Program-made: the position numbers and the translations under genes | The notes under the pieces: generated by a model | The model's database searches: none | What the model was told of the DNA's origin: nothing | What the model saw: the letters and a program-made list of their open reading frames with translations, nothing else | Shown: positions 21,213 to 42,738 of the stretch, piece after piece | How positions within the stretch are numbered: position 1 is the stretch's first letter | Layout: each line of letters starts with the position of its first letter | DNA from: a virus | Taxonomy: Duplodnaviria; Caudoviricetes | DNA: 42,738 bases | IMG/VR virus record: IMGVR_UViG_3300044514_000023 | Span: 1-42,738 of that record | Strand: one strand, 5' to 3'

Positions 21213-22133
21213 ATGCTGCCGATCATCGACATCGTGACGAATGGCGACCTAGAGGACGGCGTGGCTCCGTTCGAGCTGGAAGGCTCGGCTGTCTACACGA
21301 ACGCGAAGGCGTACGACGGTTCCTTCTCGGTGGAGCTGATCCGCTCCGCCGGACTTGGTCTGCCGGCCATCCGCTACGAGAACCTGACGCCGCTCGTGGC
21401 CGGCTGGGAGGCGACGCTCGGTTTCGCCGCGCACGACGGGGACGCGGTCCAGCCGCTGGTCGTTCAGATCGACTTCGGAGACGGCTCCCTCGTCAACTAT
21501 CACTCGGTGACCAAAGTCGGGTCGAGCTGGAGGCTGTTCTCCATCCCGTTCACGCCGATAGCCCCAGTCTGCCGGTTCAGGCTGCTCACTACCGGACCGA
21601 ACCTGAAAGGCTGGTACGTGGACGCATTCTCTTGCCTGACGCCTTCGAGGGTACTGATGGCCACTGAACTGCAGGCGCTCGAAAAGCTGAGCTTGGCGCT
21701 CCAGGAGATCAACGGCCCGCCTCAGTACAACTTCTCGCTCGGCGGCGTCCACATGGAGCACCGCCGGCCGAAGGAACGGAAGGGATGGAAGCTCCCTTAC
21801 CTATGCCTGCCACAAGCCGGCGAGGTTACGGCGCCGAAGATTTTCGAGCGCGGTCTCGTGGAACTCACTCTGAAGCAATCCATCGTCGGATACGTAGAGG
21901 ACACGGTCCTACAGGGCCACGACAGTCAACTCGTCATGATCGCCACGCTTCTCCGTCAAGACATCTGGAACGCTCTGCTGGGAGACCTGCGTCTAGGTGG
22001 CGCGGTCCACGATCTCAAAGTCGCGAGCGTCCGCAGCGAAGCAGGGACCGACCCGGAGCAACGGCACGCGGAGGTCTGGTTCGTGCTGGACCTGAACATC
22101 GCGTTTCAGCGGAGCGACCTGCCTCCGCAGTAG
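21213..22133 (+). CDS. Carbohydrate-binding-like domain fused to probable tail terminator
   Basis: NGDLEDG...AYDGSFS...W..FSIPFT...WYVDAF (CBM4/9-like), then a terminator-sized domain from M at 21657. Confidence 0.55.
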   Translation: MLPIIDIVTNGDLEDGVAPFELEGSAVYTNAKAYDGSFSVELIRSAGLGLPAIRYENLTPLVAGWEATLGFAAHDGDAVQPLVVQIDFGDGSLVNYHSVTKVGSSWRLFSIPFTPIAPVCRFRLLTTGPNLKGWYVDAFSCLTPSRVLMATELQALEKLSLALQEINGPPQYNFSLGGVHMEHRRPKERKGWKLPYLCLPQAGEVTAPKIFERGLVELTLKQSIVGYVEDTVLQGHDSQLVMIATLLRQDIWNALLGDLRLGGAVHDLKVASVRSEAGTDPEQRHAEVWFVLDLNIAFQRSDLPPQ

Positions 22134-22141
22134 AGGTCAGG

Positions 22142-22534
22142 ATGGCAAAGTTTCTCGTCTTTTCGGGCATACGCGCTCCAAGCCGAACCTGGTTCGAGAC
22201 GCGGCGCTCGAAGAACGTGCTCGACACGCTGGAGTTCTATGAGGGGCAGCCGATTCCCGACGAGGTTGTGCATGAGTTCCAGGCGCTCAGGGCCGATTCG
22301 ACGCGCGCGACGATTGCTCCTAACGGAGGCTGGATAGCTACCTCGGACTTCGAACTTCGGCGCGTCGAGACCATAGGTGGGGACATCGTCGCGGCCCACC
22401 CTGGCCAGGCGTTCCCTCTCGCCTACGTATCGGACGAACACATTGCCTACCACATCGGCAACGGAAACGCACGGATCACCGAAACGGCGCCTAGCGCGCC
22501 TACAGCGCCAACCGAAGAGATCGAGGAGCCATAA
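22142..22534 (+). CDS. Hypothetical protein
   Basis: GAGG RBS; between neck and tail tube genes. Confidence 0.6.
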   Translation: MAKFLVFSGIRAPSRTWFETRRSKNVLDTLEFYEGQPIPDEVVHEFQALRADSTRATIAPNGGWIATSDFELRRVETIGGDIVAAHPGQAFPLAYVSDEHIAYHIGNGNARITETAPSAPTAPTEEIEEP

Positions 22535-35422: not shown

Positions 35423-35767
35423 GTGAAAACAGGCACCGCAAAACCCCGTACCACGATACCGGACCCCGGCGAGCCGGCGCCGGGGCCGCAGCTCGCCCGA
35501 GAGCGCTTCCTCGAGTTCGTCGCATTTTGTGAACGTGAACGGCGATTCAACGAGAGTCTGTTAGACACGGGGCGGAGGCTCATGGTGACGCTGGCCTATG
35601 CGGAGTGCGGCAAGCAGAGACTAGTAGCCAGGATACTTCGACTGAGTACAAGGATGGTCAACTATCATCTCGAGCAGGCTGGTGTACTGAGGCCGACGGA
35701 CCGTGGTGAGCGCAAGAGAATCGCGTACAATCCGCGCAAGAAGCTGCGGATAGCGAGGTCGGCGTGA
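35423..35767 (+). CDS. HTH DNA-binding protein
   Basis: QRLVARILRLSTRMVNYHL; start codon uncertain. Confidence 0.6.
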   Translation: MKTGTAKPRTTIPDPGEPAPGPQLARERFLEFVAFCERERRFNESLLDTGRRLMVTLAYAECGKQRLVARILRLSTRMVNYHLEQAGVLRPTDRGERKRIAYNPRKKLRIARSA

Positions 35768-38628: not shown

Positions 38629-38972
38629 TCCGCATGACCGCGAAGCAGTACGCCAAGCTGAAGGGAGGTGCCTCGTGCCGGGAGCGTCGTCCCATGACTA
38701 CCCTCTCCCCTACGAGCCGCGCCGCCCCGAGTGAGGCCTGGGCGGTACGTGAAAGCTCGTCCGACATCGCCCCCCTCTGCCACCGTTGCGGCCGCAAGCA
38801 CGGGAGTAAGGGCGGGCCGGCGAGCGGGCACTGGCTGACACCGGGGCGGGCCGGCGAGCTGTGGGAGTGCATGCATTGCTGGGCAGCGCGGGAGACCGTG
38901 GAGGAGACTCGCCGCCGCATCCGCGTAGAGTACGGAGAGGACGGCCTGCCGGAGAGGATGGTGCTACGTTGA
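38625..38972 (+). CDS. Zn-ribbon hypothetical protein
   Basis: CHRCG...WECMHC. Confidence 0.55.
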   Translation: MIRMTAKQYAKLKGGASCRERRPMTTLSPTSRAAPSEAWAVRESSSDIAPLCHRCGRKHGSKGGPASGHWLTPGRAGELWECMHCWAARETVEETRRRIRVEYGEDGLPERMVLR

Positions 38973-39760
38973 GCACGCGCCGTGGAGCAGGGCAAGCCGG
39001 CGACCTTGTGCTCAGCCTCTTCCCCGGTATCGGGCTGCTCGACATGGCCCTCGAGGAGGAGGGCTTCTGCGTCGTGCGCGGGCCTGATCTGCTCTGGGGC
39101 GGTGACATCCGCCGCTTCTATCCGCCGGCGGGGAAGTTCAATGGGGTGATCGGTGGGACTCCCTGCCAAGCCTTTTCCCCGTTGCGGAAGCTCGTGGAGC
39201 ATGCGCATCTTCCCGTGGCCGCTGACCTGATCCCCGAGTTTGAGCGGTGTGTCTGTGAAGCTGGCCCAGAGTGGTTCCTGATGGAGAACGTTCCGGGGGC
39301 TCCACTACCCACTGTCCCGGGTTATATCGTGAAGGATCAACTCATCCGAGACGTAGCGGTCGGCGGCGAAACCAACAGGCTCAGGCGATTTTCTTTCGGT
39401 ACCGTCACGGGATTGACGCTGTCCATCGAATGGGCCGCCCTACATCGTACCGATCCGGCGCCGACCGTCTTGGCCTCTGGTGGCTATGCCGTCGGAGTGA
39501 AACGAGGGGAGGCCGTTCGGAAGTGGCGCAAGGGAGCCTCCGCCGCAGGCTTCAAGACCAAGAGTGTGTGGGAATACTCTCGCCGCCTTCAGGGGTTGCC
39601 CAATGATTTCTTGGCTGACGCGCCCTTCACCGTGGCCGGCAAGATCAAGGCAGTCGGAAACGGCGTCCCCCTCGCCATGGGGAGGGCGGTGGCGAGGGCG
39701 GTCAAGGCGGCTCTAGCATTGGGAAGAGAGCCACGAAACAGCCTTGGGATCTTAGCGTGA
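38969..39760 (+). CDS. C5 cytosine DNA methyltransferase
   Basis: SLFPGIG (I), GGTPCQAFS (IV), ENV (VI), R.R (VIII), RLQG (IX), GNGV (X). Confidence 0.92.
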   Translation: MSTRRGAGQAGDLVLSLFPGIGLLDMALEEEGFCVVRGPDLLWGGDIRRFYPPAGKFNGVIGGTPCQAFSPLRKLVEHAHLPVAADLIPEFERCVCEAGPEWFLMENVPGAPLPTVPGYIVKDQLIRDVAVGGETNRLRRFSFGTVTGLTLSIEWAALHRTDPAPTVLASGGYAVGVKRGEAVRKWRKGASAAGFKTKSVWEYSRRLQGLPNDFLADAPFTVAGKIKAVGNGVPLAMGRAVARAVKAALALGREPRNSLGILA

Positions 39761-40407
39761 AGGCCAAGCTCATCCTCTGGGCGCTCCTGGCCGTCCTGGC
39801 CGCCGCGGCTGTCCAGCGGGCCCGCGGGAAGGCGGCGGAGGCGGAACGCCAGCTCGAGGCGGCCCGGGCTGAGCAGGCCGGGGCCATCGTCGCCCAGCAG
39901 ATCGCCCAGGAGGCCCTCGACGCCTCTCTCGACAGGGAGGCCGGGCTGACCGCCCAGCTCGACCGGGTGGCCCAGGTGGCCCCCAAGACTACCGTCCGTG
40001 AGATCGTCCGCTGGCGGTCGGGCGAGATTGAGGTTGCGGCCGAAACGCTTTGCCCTGAGCCGGGAACAACCCCACAGGCACAGCCCGCACCTATTCCTAT
40101 TCGGTTCCGTATTGCCGGAGTAGAGGCGAGGCTAGAAAGCCAGAAGGGCAACCTTTTTGCCGTTGGTTCCGTGGAGTTGTGGCGCACCTCACCGCTGCCA
40201 GAGGAAATGCTTGGGAGGGCTCCGTGGAAATCCGGTGAACTCCTGGCACCGAAGGTCGAGCTCGGGGCCAGCTTATCTCGGTTCGCGTGGGGTCCACGTC
40301 GCCCCAAGCATTGGCGGACTGGGTGGTTCGCTGGACCGGCTATTCTCTCGGCTACCGATGGTCGGCTGACCGCCGGCATTGCCCTGGGGTGGGGCTTACA
40401 GTTCTGA
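39757..40407 (+). CDS. TM + coiled-coil + C-terminal beta-strand protein, candidate one-piece spanin
   Basis: LILWALLAVLAAAAV, long A/E/Q helix, ends GIALGWGLQF. Confidence 0.6.
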   Translation: MKAKLILWALLAVLAAAAVQRARGKAAEAERQLEAARAEQAGAIVAQQIAQEALDASLDREAGLTAQLDRVAQVAPKTTVREIVRWRSGEIEVAAETLCPEPGTTPQAQPAPIPIRFRIAGVEARLESQKGNLFAVGSVELWRTSPLPEEMLGRAPWKSGELLAPKVELGASLSRFAWGPRRPKHWRTGWFAGPAILSATDGRLTAGIALGWGLQF

Positions 40408-40427
40408 CAAGCACCGACACGTTCCAC

Positions 40428-40456
40428 TAGACAAAATGCGTCCAACGCGTTACTAT
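40428..40456 (+). promoter_or_regulatory. Promoter of HNH cassette (probably leaderless)
   Basis: TAGACA-17 nt-TACTAT, 7 nt before ATG 40464. Confidence 0.65.
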
Positions 40457-40463
40457 GAGGGCC

Positions 40464-40955
40464 ATGGCCCAGGTAACGTGCCCAGTCTGCTTCGGTCTGT
40501 TTGCTCCAGTCAGGACATGGCAACGCTTCTGTTCACCGAAGTGCCGGCATGTCGCATGGAAGGACCAGGATCTAGCCCGCAGGTTCTCGGAGTTTGTCTG
40601 CGCCTACTGCGGTGAATCGGCGGACACGCTTGACCACGTCCCGCCGCTGTGCACCAGAACGAAGATCACGGAAATGGGTCTCGGCGTCCAGTATCCGTCC
40701 TTCGAGGTTAGATGTTGCCGGGAATGCAATTGTGCTCTTGGGAGTCGGGCTATCTGGACGCTTCGCCAGCGTCGGAAGTTCATCGGTGCCTACTTGAAGA
40801 AGCGATACGCTAGGTACCTGAAGATTCCGAACTGGACGCGAGACGAAATGGGCCCGCTGGGGAGGACCCTATCGAAATACGTTCTGCGGGGGCTGGCCGA
40901 GAAGGAGCGAGCAGAGGCGAGGATAACGTTCACCTCGAGACATGGTCTGTCATGA
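40464..40955 (+). CDS. Free-standing HNH endonuclease (PacI-like Zn-bound) with N-terminal Zn finger
   Basis: CPVC...FCSPKC; CAYCG...DHVPP...CCRECN. Confidence 0.85.
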   Translation: MAQVTCPVCFGLFAPVRTWQRFCSPKCRHVAWKDQDLARRFSEFVCAYCGESADTLDHVPPLCTRTKITEMGLGVQYPSFEVRCCRECNCALGSRAIWTLRQRRKFIGAYLKKRYARYLKIPNWTRDEMGPLGRTLSKYVLRGLAEKERAEARITFTSRHGLS

Positions 40956-40961
40956 TTCCCC

Positions 40962-41183
40962 ATCGCGCCACCACCGGAAACGCTGCTCGGGACCGCCCCG
41001 TGGGAGTCGGCGGAGCTACTGGTCTCGCCGGCCGTGCTGGAGCCTGCCACCCCGCGGGTCGCCTGGGCGCCCAGGAGGCTGAGACACTGGCGGGTGGGGT
41101 GGTTTGCCGGGCCGGCCGTGGTCTACGCGGCGGACGGCAGGGTCACCGGAGGCGTCGTCGTGGGCCTAGGGATCCAGTTCTAG
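40962..41183 (+). pseudogene. Orphaned second copy of the last 73 codons of 39757..40407
   Basis: IAPPPETLLG...GLGIQF* aligns ungapped with 40186-40407 (39/73 identical by manual count); no start codon. Confidence 0.88.
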
Positions 41184-41467
41184 GCAGTACTACCATCGGG
41201 CTTGAGCGACCATAGGTTGTCAAGGACTTTCTCACAGTAAATGGTCTACTAGTACCAGTATGGCTTGAACTGTCAGATACAGATGGTATCATGGAGGCCA
41301 TGGAAGACACACCGACACCCAGAGTTTGGACGGGTCCCTGGGCATGCGTGAGCGCTTTAGCATACCCACAAAGCTACATGGCTTCTTGGCCGATGGCAAG
41401 GGGAAATCGCAAACCCTATAAATCCATCTTGACTCCATAGGTGTCTCCGGGGTAGGAAAGGGGCCGG

Positions 41468-41671
41468 ATGTCTGACTATCTGTTTGCGAGACCTTCGTTT
41501 TTGGCGGGAATGGCCAGAGTCGCTGATCTCGGTGGCGCGCTCGATTCGTACAACGATAGCCCGACCGAGGCATACGCCGACGCCAACGCCCTTTTCATGG
41601 ATTTTTGGGCCGTTGGCAAAGACCTTTATGATGCCTATGTAAGGGCTGCCGAAGAGGCGATCAAGAAGTAG
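41468..41671 (+). CDS. Small conserved-looking hypothetical protein on a lower-GC insert
   Basis: LFARPSFLAGMARVADLGG...YN...AD..A...D..AVG.D; oriented against the early arm. Confidence 0.7.
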   Translation: MSDYLFARPSFLAGMARVADLGGALDSYNDSPTEAYADANALFMDFWAVGKDLYDAYVRAAEEAIKK

Positions 41672-41797
41672 TACGATCTTGCGGCACGGTCCACCGATCT
41701 GCCCAGACCCTGGCCTCCGTCTGGAGTAGTGCCGATCCGCCAAAGATAGCGCTTCTGGATCGCATTGGTTCCGCAGGATCCAACCGTCAATCAGCAC
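41669..41797 (-). pseudogene. Truncated 5' part of a phage protein (DP...LADRHYSR family, possibly Mom/GNAT-like)
   Basis: DPEALSLADRHYSRRRPGSGQIGGPCRKIVLL; the frame then runs antisense into 41468..41671. Confidence 0.5.
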
Positions 41798-41801
41798 GGT
41801 G

Positions 41802-41990
41802 CTATCCCACTGCCCACAGCGCCAGCGCGCAGACCGCCGCGGCTGTCCCCGCGCCGAGCCACCAGCCAACCATCAGGGACCGAGGGTCGTACCGTCGCTC
41901 CCGGTTGATCGCGCGCAGGAACCTGTCGCCGCGGTTGTAGCACGGCCCTTCGTGCGGGCCGCCGCGTGAGCTGAGGAGGTGGAGGTTCAT
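41802..41990 (-). CDS. Small protein with C-terminal TM helix
   Basis: LMVGWWLGAGTAAAVCALALWAV; shares MNLHLL start with the ligase. Confidence 0.6.
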   Translation of the reverse strand: MNLHLLSSRGGPHEGPCYNRGDRFLRAINRERRYDPRSLMVGWWLGAGTAAAVCALALWAVG

Positions 41991-42622
41991 CAGAAATCTT
42001 TCGTCTTGATCTTCACGATCAACCTAGCGCCTTTCTTGTCAAATAGCGTTTCGGCCGGACGCCCAACCAGACCTTCCGCCATGGCCGCTCCGTTGTTCAA
42101 CAGCGACGGAAATCCGGCCTGCACCATCACCGTCGCTTCTTCGAGTGTCATCTCGCCAACGAACGGGACCACGTCAAGGCCGATCTTGGCAGCCACGTCG
42201 CATGTGTTCTCCCAGCTCAACCACCACTTGCCGTCCACTAGTACGTCGAAGACGATGAGCTTCTTTGTGAGGGAATAGTTTCCGCCCTTCTGGATTCCAG
42301 CGCCGTAGCCTTCCCCGTAAATAACGACGTTGCCTTCTGGAAAGACGTTGGACATTGTCGAGGTCGGCACGTTTTCGTACAGCCACCTCACGAGGTCTGC
42401 GTGGATCTGGGCGTTGTCAGTTTTTCCACCGAATCTGAGGATGCCGTTCTCCCAAATGCAACGGATGTTCGTTCCGTCGATTTTCTCGGTCCAGATCCAC
42501 GACTTGACGAGAGAGTACGTGCGATTCTTGAGTCGCGATGGGTCCACCTTGTGAGTTATCTCATCTCGGACGTACAGTGTTTCGATCTTGTGATATTCGC
42601 TTCCGAGGAGGTGGAGGTTCAT
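41990..42622 (-). CDS. RNA ligase (Rnl2-like nucleotidyltransferase domain)
   Basis: YHKI, TEKIDGTN (motif I), YGEGYG, FDV, EGLV, KIK. Confidence 0.9.
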   Translation of the reverse strand: MNLHLLGSEYHKIETLYVRDEITHKVDPSRLKNRTYSLVKSWIWTEKIDGTNIRCIWENGILRFGGKTDNAQIHADLVRWLYENVPTSTMSNVFPEGNVVIYGEGYGAGIQKGGNYSLTKKLIVFDVLVDGKWWLSWENTCDVAAKIGLDVVPFVGEMTLEEATVMVQAGFPSLLNNGAAMAEGLVGRPAETLFDKKGARLIVKIKTKDF

Positions 42623-42738
42623 ACTTCGACCGAGATTCGGACCGCCAGATTCAGTTTAGGCTGCAGACTCGACATGGTGTAGGTGGGGTTGACTTCGACC
42701 TCAACGATCAACCCAGCTTCTAGTCCCTTGGCGATGGC
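42596..42738. repeat. Terminal direct repeat, right copy
   Basis: Matches 1-143 with one mismatch. Confidence 0.97.

Follow-up and report, generated by a model that had tools for sequence, protein, structure and literature searches.

Endonuclease genes that bring a replacement 3' end for the gene they invade have been described in yeast and in fungal mitochondria. In the WHO elements of yeast, which are located at FBA1 and whose anatomy has been proven to home (PMC7282813; bioRxiv 10.64898/2026.08.13.744650), an intact host gene is followed by an endonuclease gene and then by a 3' piece of the host gene that lacks a start (PMC7282813). The element consists of the nuclease with an alternative 3' half and works without splicing, and the stranded 3' fragment starts near the cut site; in the WHO model, this orphan fragment gives the right-hand homology (PMC7282813). 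Among homing elements, those of the WHO type have been placed in a third category, described as rare (bioRxiv 10.64898/2026.08.13.744650). In the mORFs of fungal mitochondria, the insert comprises a foreign C-terminus and an endonuclease, and the native C-terminus is stranded downstream (PMC3630166; PMC6279837), as in atp6 of Allomyces macrogynus and atp6, atp9, cox2, and nad3 of Glomus (PMC3630166). Intronless homing in phage T4 proceeds via the seg and mob genes, in which the nuclease gene lies beside its target, the cut site is hundreds of bases away, and the DNA between is co-converted (PMC2988022). There, however, two-sided homology swaps in the donor allele and leaves no duplicated gene end, and none is mentioned in the available part of that account (PMC2988022).

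The phage locus described here has the 3'-replacement layout: the host gene ends at 40407, an HNH gene starts at 40464, and a start-less fragment of the host gene lies behind it, starting at a conserved site. By analogy, the cassette is probably a phage counterpart of the WHO and mORF elements. A preliminary description of the sequence had invoked the fungal mitochondrial precedent for a foreign 3' gene end arriving with a free-standing endonuclease, and that precedent is real (PMC3630166). Inserted and native ends of mORFs are 64 to 81% identical, a range similar to that of the phage pair (PMC3630166). However, mORFs encode LAGLIDADG or GIY-YIG nucleases, and their native end was proven by a close relative, whereas the native end here is identified by codon composition only (PMC3630166). 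The yeast WHO elements are a still closer precedent (PMC7282813). They combine a LAGLIDADG nuclease and a zinc finger with the essential target FBA1, clusters of up to 9, proven allele-specific cleavage, and alleles that are ∼85% identical. In contrast, the phage cassette has an HNH nuclease of predicted activity, a spanin-like phage gene, a single copy, and ends that are 59% identical. The HNH nuclease, the phage gene, and the single copy rule out assignment to the WHO elements proper. As far as the available parts of the sources go, and in literature drawn mostly from outside subscription journals, we found no phage in which a nuclease gene lies between two copies of a gene end (PMC10448857, PMC2248197, PMC12724721, PMC2988022, PMC2993671).

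Genome setting and the two copies of the gene end

The window (the whole stretch of DNA analyzed, 42,738 nt) is the entire circular genome of an uncultured sediment phage. The contig is complete and circular, as seen from the 143-nt terminal repeat (bases 1 to 143 and 42596 to 42738), in which one base differs. Genes in the window include those for terminase, portal, major head, helicase, and methyltransferase proteins, as well as an M23 peptidase at 35764. Sequencing runs that contain sequence from this region were three sediment metagenomes only (X1, X2, and X3). The features of the cassette are listed below with the number of G/C third positions, which here and throughout leave out Met and Trp codons.

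39757 to 40407, + strand: host gene, 216 amino acids, now chimeric; product predicted to be spanin-like/DUF6808-like
39757 to 40023, + strand: resident 5' part of the host gene; G/C third positions, 80/86
40024 to 40185, + strand: donor-type middle, a putative co-converted tract; G/C third positions, 29/53
40186 to 40407, + strand: in-use 3' end, 73 codons and TGA, putatively foreign; G/C third positions, 42/67
40428 to 40456, + strand: promoter-like TAGACA-17-TACTAT; −10 box 7 nt ahead of the ATG at 40464
40464 to 40955, + strand: free-standing HNH nuclease gene, 163 amino acids, phrog_36777 family; longest open reading frame from 40455
40956 to 40961, + strand: right junction, 6 nt, between the HNH stop and the first orphan codon; the HNH stop is overlapped by an ATG at 40952
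40962 to 41183, + strand: start-less orphan 3' end, 73 codons and TAG, intact, putatively resident; G/C third positions, 60/69

The preliminary description had reported that the last 73 codons of the host gene recur behind the HNH gene as a start-less frame, and this was borne out. Codons 144 to 216 were found again at 40962 to 41183, and in an ungapped alignment of 40186 to 40404 with 40962 to 41180, 39 of 73 amino acids were identical, as were 132 of 222 nucleotides (59%) when the stop codons were included. The best of 20,000 shuffles of the tail against the orphan gave 18 identities. With the 143-nt terminal repeat set aside, this pair is the sole internal protein-level duplication in the window.

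Mismatches between the in-use tail and the orphan were concentrated at third codon positions (46/74, compared to 23/74 at first and 21/74 at second positions), and the NG86 estimates were 0.35 for dN and 2.4 for dS (dN/dS, ∼0.15). The low ratio and the third-position excess indicate that both ends diverged as working alleles or orthologues. Thus, the pattern of substitution identifies the pair as two alleles or orthologues rather than a copy and its decaying twin. Duplication of the 3' end in place, with later insertion of the HNH gene and drift of one copy, would explain why the copies are collinear and of equal length. However, saturated synonymous sites and a dN/dS of ∼0.15 indicate selection on both copies, which is impossible for a start-less one, and it would be left unexplained why the codon composition changes 160 nt before the duplicated part begins. 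In-place duplication is therefore highly improbable.

The metagenomic origin of the sequence and its low read depth (∼8) are compatible with an assembly chimera of two phage strains. However, a single 1,782-nt contig of run X1 spans the cassette (39572 to 41353) without joints or mismatched letters. This contig counts against misassembly, although it is not independent, since X1 may be the source sample. In addition, the longest identical run between the in-use tail and the orphan is 8 nt, leaving nothing longer to mislead an assembler. A chimeric assembly is scarcely credible. Runs X2 and X3 contained short exact pieces only (39630 to 39903 and 39570 to 39720, respectively) and no sequence across the cassette, at depths too shallow to be informative.

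The orphan has no start codon, no internal stop, and no frameshift or indel, and it keeps its own TAG. This intactness suggests that the event was probably recent. The orphan is also in frame with the HNH gene, two codons past the HNH TGA, which raises the question of whether it is still used. It might be expressed by readthrough of the TGA as an HNH-tail fusion, or as a free tail peptide either by a +1 shift from the ATG at 40952 or from an internal GTG at 41034, which opens a 49-amino-acid frame, or it might serve as a reservoir for tail switching. The shared frame, the lack of stops and indels, the retained stop codon, and the high variability of tails in the host family are all compatible with use, but a recent event would account for the intactness. 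For tail switching, 59% shared bases with a longest run of 8 nt are too little for efficiency, and no inverted repeats or recombinase sites were found flanking the cassette. Continued use of the orphan is improbable.

Codon composition was compared across the cassette in order to determine which end is native. In addition to the counts listed above (the 5' part being counted from 39760), G/C third positions made up 106/156 in the HNH gene. When the 5' part and the orphan were grouped (140/155, 90%) and compared to the stretch between them, including the HNH gene (177/276, 64%), the P value was 8e-10, for a grouping that was picked after the data were seen. The orphan differed from the in-use tail (P = 0.0014), whereas the 5' part (39760 to 40008) was similar to the orphan (P = 0.28) and the in-use tail was similar to the HNH gene (P = 0.44). 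The step persisted after correction for amino acid content (z scores: 5' part, +3.5; in-use tail, −2.6; HNH gene, −2.9; orphan, +2.4). Where the two copies encode the same amino acid with codons of differing G/C class, the G/C codon was in the orphan 13 times and in the in-use copy 4 times. The best composition change point was at 40024 to 40027, a fit reached by 0 of 2,000 permutations, with alternative optima near 39985. The counts and the change point agree with the earlier observation that the orphan resembles the 5' part of the gene, whereas the in-use copy from about 40025 and the HNH gene use more A/T-ending codons.

Among 19 reference open reading frames, 18 had a G/C third-position fraction of 0.72 to 0.88, and the remaining one (21785 to 22534), at 0.55, may be in the wrong frame. 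In the adjacent methyltransferase gene the value was 61 to 80%, so that 60 to 70% is not foreign to this genome and the direction of replacement rests on the step within the gene and on the rise back to high values in the orphan. Just upstream of the C5 methyltransferase gene, there is a 16-nt direct repeat with copies 34 nt apart (38809 to 38860) and a third partial copy at 38989.

The composition data suggest that a G/C-rich resident gene was likely split by ∼935 bp of other DNA, comprising a foreign 3' half, a promoter, and the HNH gene, and that the resident 3' end was displaced. We infer that the in-use 3' end is foreign and the orphan is native, a direction favored by the codon composition, the dN/dS, and the position of the junction in a conserved motif of the host family. 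The replaced end would be unusually long, with 73 codons and ∼54 co-converted codons, and both breakpoints can be read from the codon composition. The first 6 codons of the orphan, 3 of which are G/C-ending compared to 57/63 in the remainder, are possibly a trace of an older donor fragment, but six codons are too few to rely on.

The interrupted gene and its family

A HMMER search of 1.84 billion representatives with the host protein yielded 70 proteins, self included, and 67 homologues were analyzed after the query and two long repetitive proteins were dropped. An N-terminal hydrophobic segment was present in 58 of the 67, and a lipobox-like motif was present in 2. The structure model of the host protein (mean pLDDT, 82) consists of a helix (residues 2 to 74), a beta domain (79 to 159), a low-confidence linker, and a C-terminal hairpin (187 to 215), the last of these being a beta hairpin that ends in Phe; a membrane helix is predicted at the N-terminus. 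This N-terminal membrane helix and a long periplasmic-type helix are shared with i-spanins such as lambda Rz and with DUF6808 proteins (PMC6139136), and the gene lies ∼3.5 kb after the M23 peptidase gene. What sets the host protein apart is an additional beta domain together with an amphipathic hairpin at the C-terminus, and we identified no o-spanin partner.

Pfam and NCBIfam searches with the host protein gave nothing useful, and the protein itself had no PHROG match. Weak matches to PHROGs of Rz-like spanins were seen among family members, in no more than 3 of 30 for any one PHROG family (best E value, 0.0017). DUF6808 look-alikes were weakly indicated by the Atlas (0.89 to 0.90) and by Foldseek (E value, 0.012), but membership in DUF6808 was rejected, as PF20647 was matched by 0 of 30 family members. 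Foldseek against the PDB gave no match at an E value of ≤0.001. A u-spanin of the T1 gp11 type was also rejected, given the low frequency of the lipobox-like motif and a C-terminus that is a predicted beta hairpin rather than a membrane helix (PMC6139136). We infer a putative spanin-like role in lysis for the host protein.

The host protein and its relatives (P0002 and P0004 to P0071) constitute an unnamed phage protein family of ∼68 clusters, with an N-terminal membrane helix, a long helix, a conserved beta domain, and variable beta tails that often end in an aromatic residue, and may represent a candidate spanin-like type.

The best-conserved 15-residue window in the 67 homologues, jointly ranked, was residues 135 to 149 (mean, 0.58), with R143 at 82%, P146 at 93%, and P148 at 84%. 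The right junction, at codons 143/144, falls inside this window at an ELWR-x-x-PPPE motif, as would be expected for a homing target. The break is positioned at the end of a modeled core strand (133 to 145), and according to the model, a plain insertion at codon 143/144 would remove the core strand and the C-terminal hairpin and so destroy the domain. The left breakpoint (∼40024) lies in or just after another conserved patch, around W86, a likely place for recombination if the donor was divergent.

Tails in the host family are highly variable, with a mean identity of 0.20 after residue 165 compared to 0.35 at residues 113 to 143, and all between-segment rank correlations involving the tail were 0.11 to 0.13, which is uninformative as to 5'/3' discordance. 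When the first 20 residues of the two ends were scored against the 67 homologues, the orphan scored higher with 41, the in-use end scored higher with 22, and 4 were ties. P0046, which alone among the homologues shares this tail type, scored 111 against the in-use tail and 89 against the orphan, and so speaks against the proposed direction.

The preliminary description had predicted that related phages without the HNH gene would join sequence near 40185 to sequence like that at 40962, but no close relative with an empty allele emerged from IMG/VR, GenBank phages, JGI metagenomes, or protein searches. Because the tract from 40024 to 40185 is donor-type, joining 40185 to 40962 would give a chimera and not the lost empty allele. 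Scans of IMG/VR with the host gene gave no match in 24 and 37 candidate stretches, and GenBank phages had no host-gene match. Two of 88 stretches in JGI metagenomes were retrieved, one of which (L005) was spurious. The other (L004), a true distant relative, is uninterrupted through the conserved motif and has no HNH gene within 208 nt past its stop. Of its 48 bases after the junction, 29 match the orphan and 22 match the in-use copy, which indicates that the orphan is an authentic continuation of the gene, not which end is native. A protein search with the host protein found 1 relative among 4703 candidates. Overall, the best homologue was 44 to 45% identical over the N-terminal 160 residues. 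When a two-tail profile was compared with longer proteins, the gene itself was the sole match among 4301 candidates, a result that the tool rates as weak evidence.

The HNH nuclease and loci with related nucleases

The HNH protein matched phrog_36777 (E value, 1e-15) and, weakly, endonuclease VII/HNH PHROGs. The match to Pfam HNH_5 (E value, 0.006; 16.9 bits) was below the gathering score of 27.5, and a profile of the protein matched a solved HNH endonuclease (PDB 4h9d; E value, 0.0009). The protein comprises an N-terminal Cys4 module, a CxxC-D-H...CxxC-N core, and C-terminal helices. D60, H61, N92, and both CxxC pairs were invariant in all four aligned sequences (the HNH protein and three GenBank relatives), so the catalytic residues (D-H...N) look intact. 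The Cys4 module, a candidate for a separate DNA-binding module, has no counterpart in the three GenBank relatives and matched HNH-associated PHROGs weakly.

A −10 box 7 nt ahead of an ATG may mark a leaderless transcript. The HNH gene probably starts at the ATG at 40464 (163 amino acids) rather than at 40455, since the ATG at 40455 lies within the −10 box, and a probable leaderless promoter is predicted at 40428 to 40456. The earlier proposal that the gene has its own promoter is thus favored by the −10/ATG geometry, which occurs only three times in the genome, but gains little from the bare motif match: the promoter scan found 2 sites compared to 0.9 expected by chance. One recurrence of the geometry, with a near-identical spacer, is at 41287; in that stretch (41265 to 41440, + strand), a promoter-like site precedes a 46-codon open reading frame without a family match.

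A direct scan of IMG/VR for relatives of the HNH gene gave 0 of 110, and a protein search found only the protein itself among 30 candidates. An alignment scan yielded 31 HNH-related loci, which together with 3 from GenBank made 34 loci (22 groups at 90% identity, 19 with at least 500 nt on both sides); L032 to L036 may be generic HNH genes. A duplicated or replaced upstream gene end was found at 0 of the 34 loci. Comparison of upstream with downstream sequence gave short matches only (E values, 0.001 to 0.009), compared to 4e-17 for the window. Judging from these alignments, the layout belongs to this insertion and is not a habit of the HNH family.

Just upstream of terL, cyanophages S-CBP4 and S-RIP1 carry relatives of the HNH gene. 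No such gene is present at that position in S-CBP3 and S-CBP1, the two negatives inspected, whose terL genes are 85 to 86% identical. Such patchy presence is as expected for homing genes. In cyanopodoviruses with a related HNH gene (L001 at 2902, L003 at 2887, and L018 to L020), the terL frame apparently begins ∼10 to 16 codons earlier than in the HNH-less S-CBP3 and S-CBP1 (L037 and L038 at 1489); the sequence ahead of the HNH gene showed no stranded terL start.

Routes by which the arrangement may have arisen

We consider it reasonably probable that the HNH cassette entered as a homing element that cleaved the resident gene near codon 143 and replaced its 3' half with a cut-resistant one, as in the yeast WHO elements. 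During co-infection, the HNH nuclease would introduce a nick or a cut into the resident allele, either within the conserved ELWR-x-x-PPPE codons or close to them. On the left, ∼160 nt would be resected, and recombination with the donor in the next conserved patch (∼40024) would copy in donor DNA from the middle of the gene through its 3' end and the promoter to the HNH gene. The right end would then rejoin 6 nt past the HNH stop, where the donor DNA stops. This join could be made by microhomology in a one-sided repair, which would be the birth event, or by recombination with an orphan already in the donor, which would represent an ongoing cycle. The gene would be kept whole while the target was split and recoded, and the orphan, probably silent, could provide the right-hand homology arm for later homing.

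The distance from the junction to the HNH ATG is 279 nt. In T4 homing, one-sided illegitimate break repair with microhomology joins, distant cleavage sites, and co-conversion have all been documented (PMC2988022). By analogy, repair of the T4 type would give exactly this layout from an ordinary free-standing nuclease if donor and recipient differed downstream. The preliminary description had proposed that an intron-free 3'-replacement strategy operates here. The anatomy and the direction (codon composition, dN/dS, and the junction in a conserved motif) agree with that proposal, while HNH cleavage at the junction and homing are conjectural. Points against an HNH-driven origin are that the databases searched yielded no close empty allele, that P0046 is closer to the in-use tail, that the layout was found at none of the 34 related loci, that the Pfam HNH match is below the gathering score, and that the composition of the insert is not unusual for the genome.

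Ordinary phage mosaicism would require neither cleavage nor homing: a segment from a related phage, with a 3' half and a promoter-bearing HNH gene, would have entered by a homologous left crossover and a chance illegitimate right join, with the HNH gene as a passenger. Mosaicism predicts the same composition step and an intact orphan, and it is consistent with the finding of the layout at no other locus of the HNH family. The ATG at 40952, which overlaps the HNH stop, resembles the start of the next gene in several relatives, so the donor segment may end a few bases into such a gene; furthermore, a similar promoter precedes an unrelated short open reading frame at 41300. However, two coincidences would be required, in that the join lies 6 nt past the HNH stop and also inside the best-conserved motif. 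The patchy, homing-gene-like distribution of the HNH relatives also argues against a passenger. By our own estimate, a random break across codons 90 to 216 would perhaps hit the conserved block about 1 in 4 times, which counts against the homing reading. Mosaicism alone, the main rival, is unlikely, though by no means negligible.

If phage HNH genes share the strategy of the WHO elements, then viruses came to it independently and by means of another kind of nuclease. Homing of this kind would also explain how mosaic boundaries come to lie within phage genes, and the cut sites of uncharacterized nucleases could be located from a simple footprint, an orphan gene end that follows the nuclease gene. 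A more far-reaching proposal, which we regard as quite doubtful, is that phages hold an undescribed, widespread third class of homing elements, HNH nucleases that need neither intron nor intein to home and swap in their own gene end. In that case, the target here would be the conserved core of an uncharacterized lysis protein, an inverted one-piece spanin anchored by a membrane helix at its N-terminus and by a beta hairpin at its C-terminus. The tail variability of the family would then be driven by repeated homing.

Two further observations were made in the region that follows the cassette. At ∼41663 to 41782 (− strand), the sequence has a match to phrog_24928 (E value, 6e-8) that is confined to positions 1 to 42 of 157. 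This fragment is cut off by a 67-amino-acid gene on the opposite strand (41468 to 41671) and is probably another truncated gene. Further downstream, a perfect 18-nt direct repeat (41973 to 41990 and 42605 to 42622) flanks a gene for an Rnl2-like RNA ligase (41990 to 42622, − strand). The ligase frame and the next small open reading frame open with the same six codons, which suggests insertion of the ligase gene at a gene start with target duplication.
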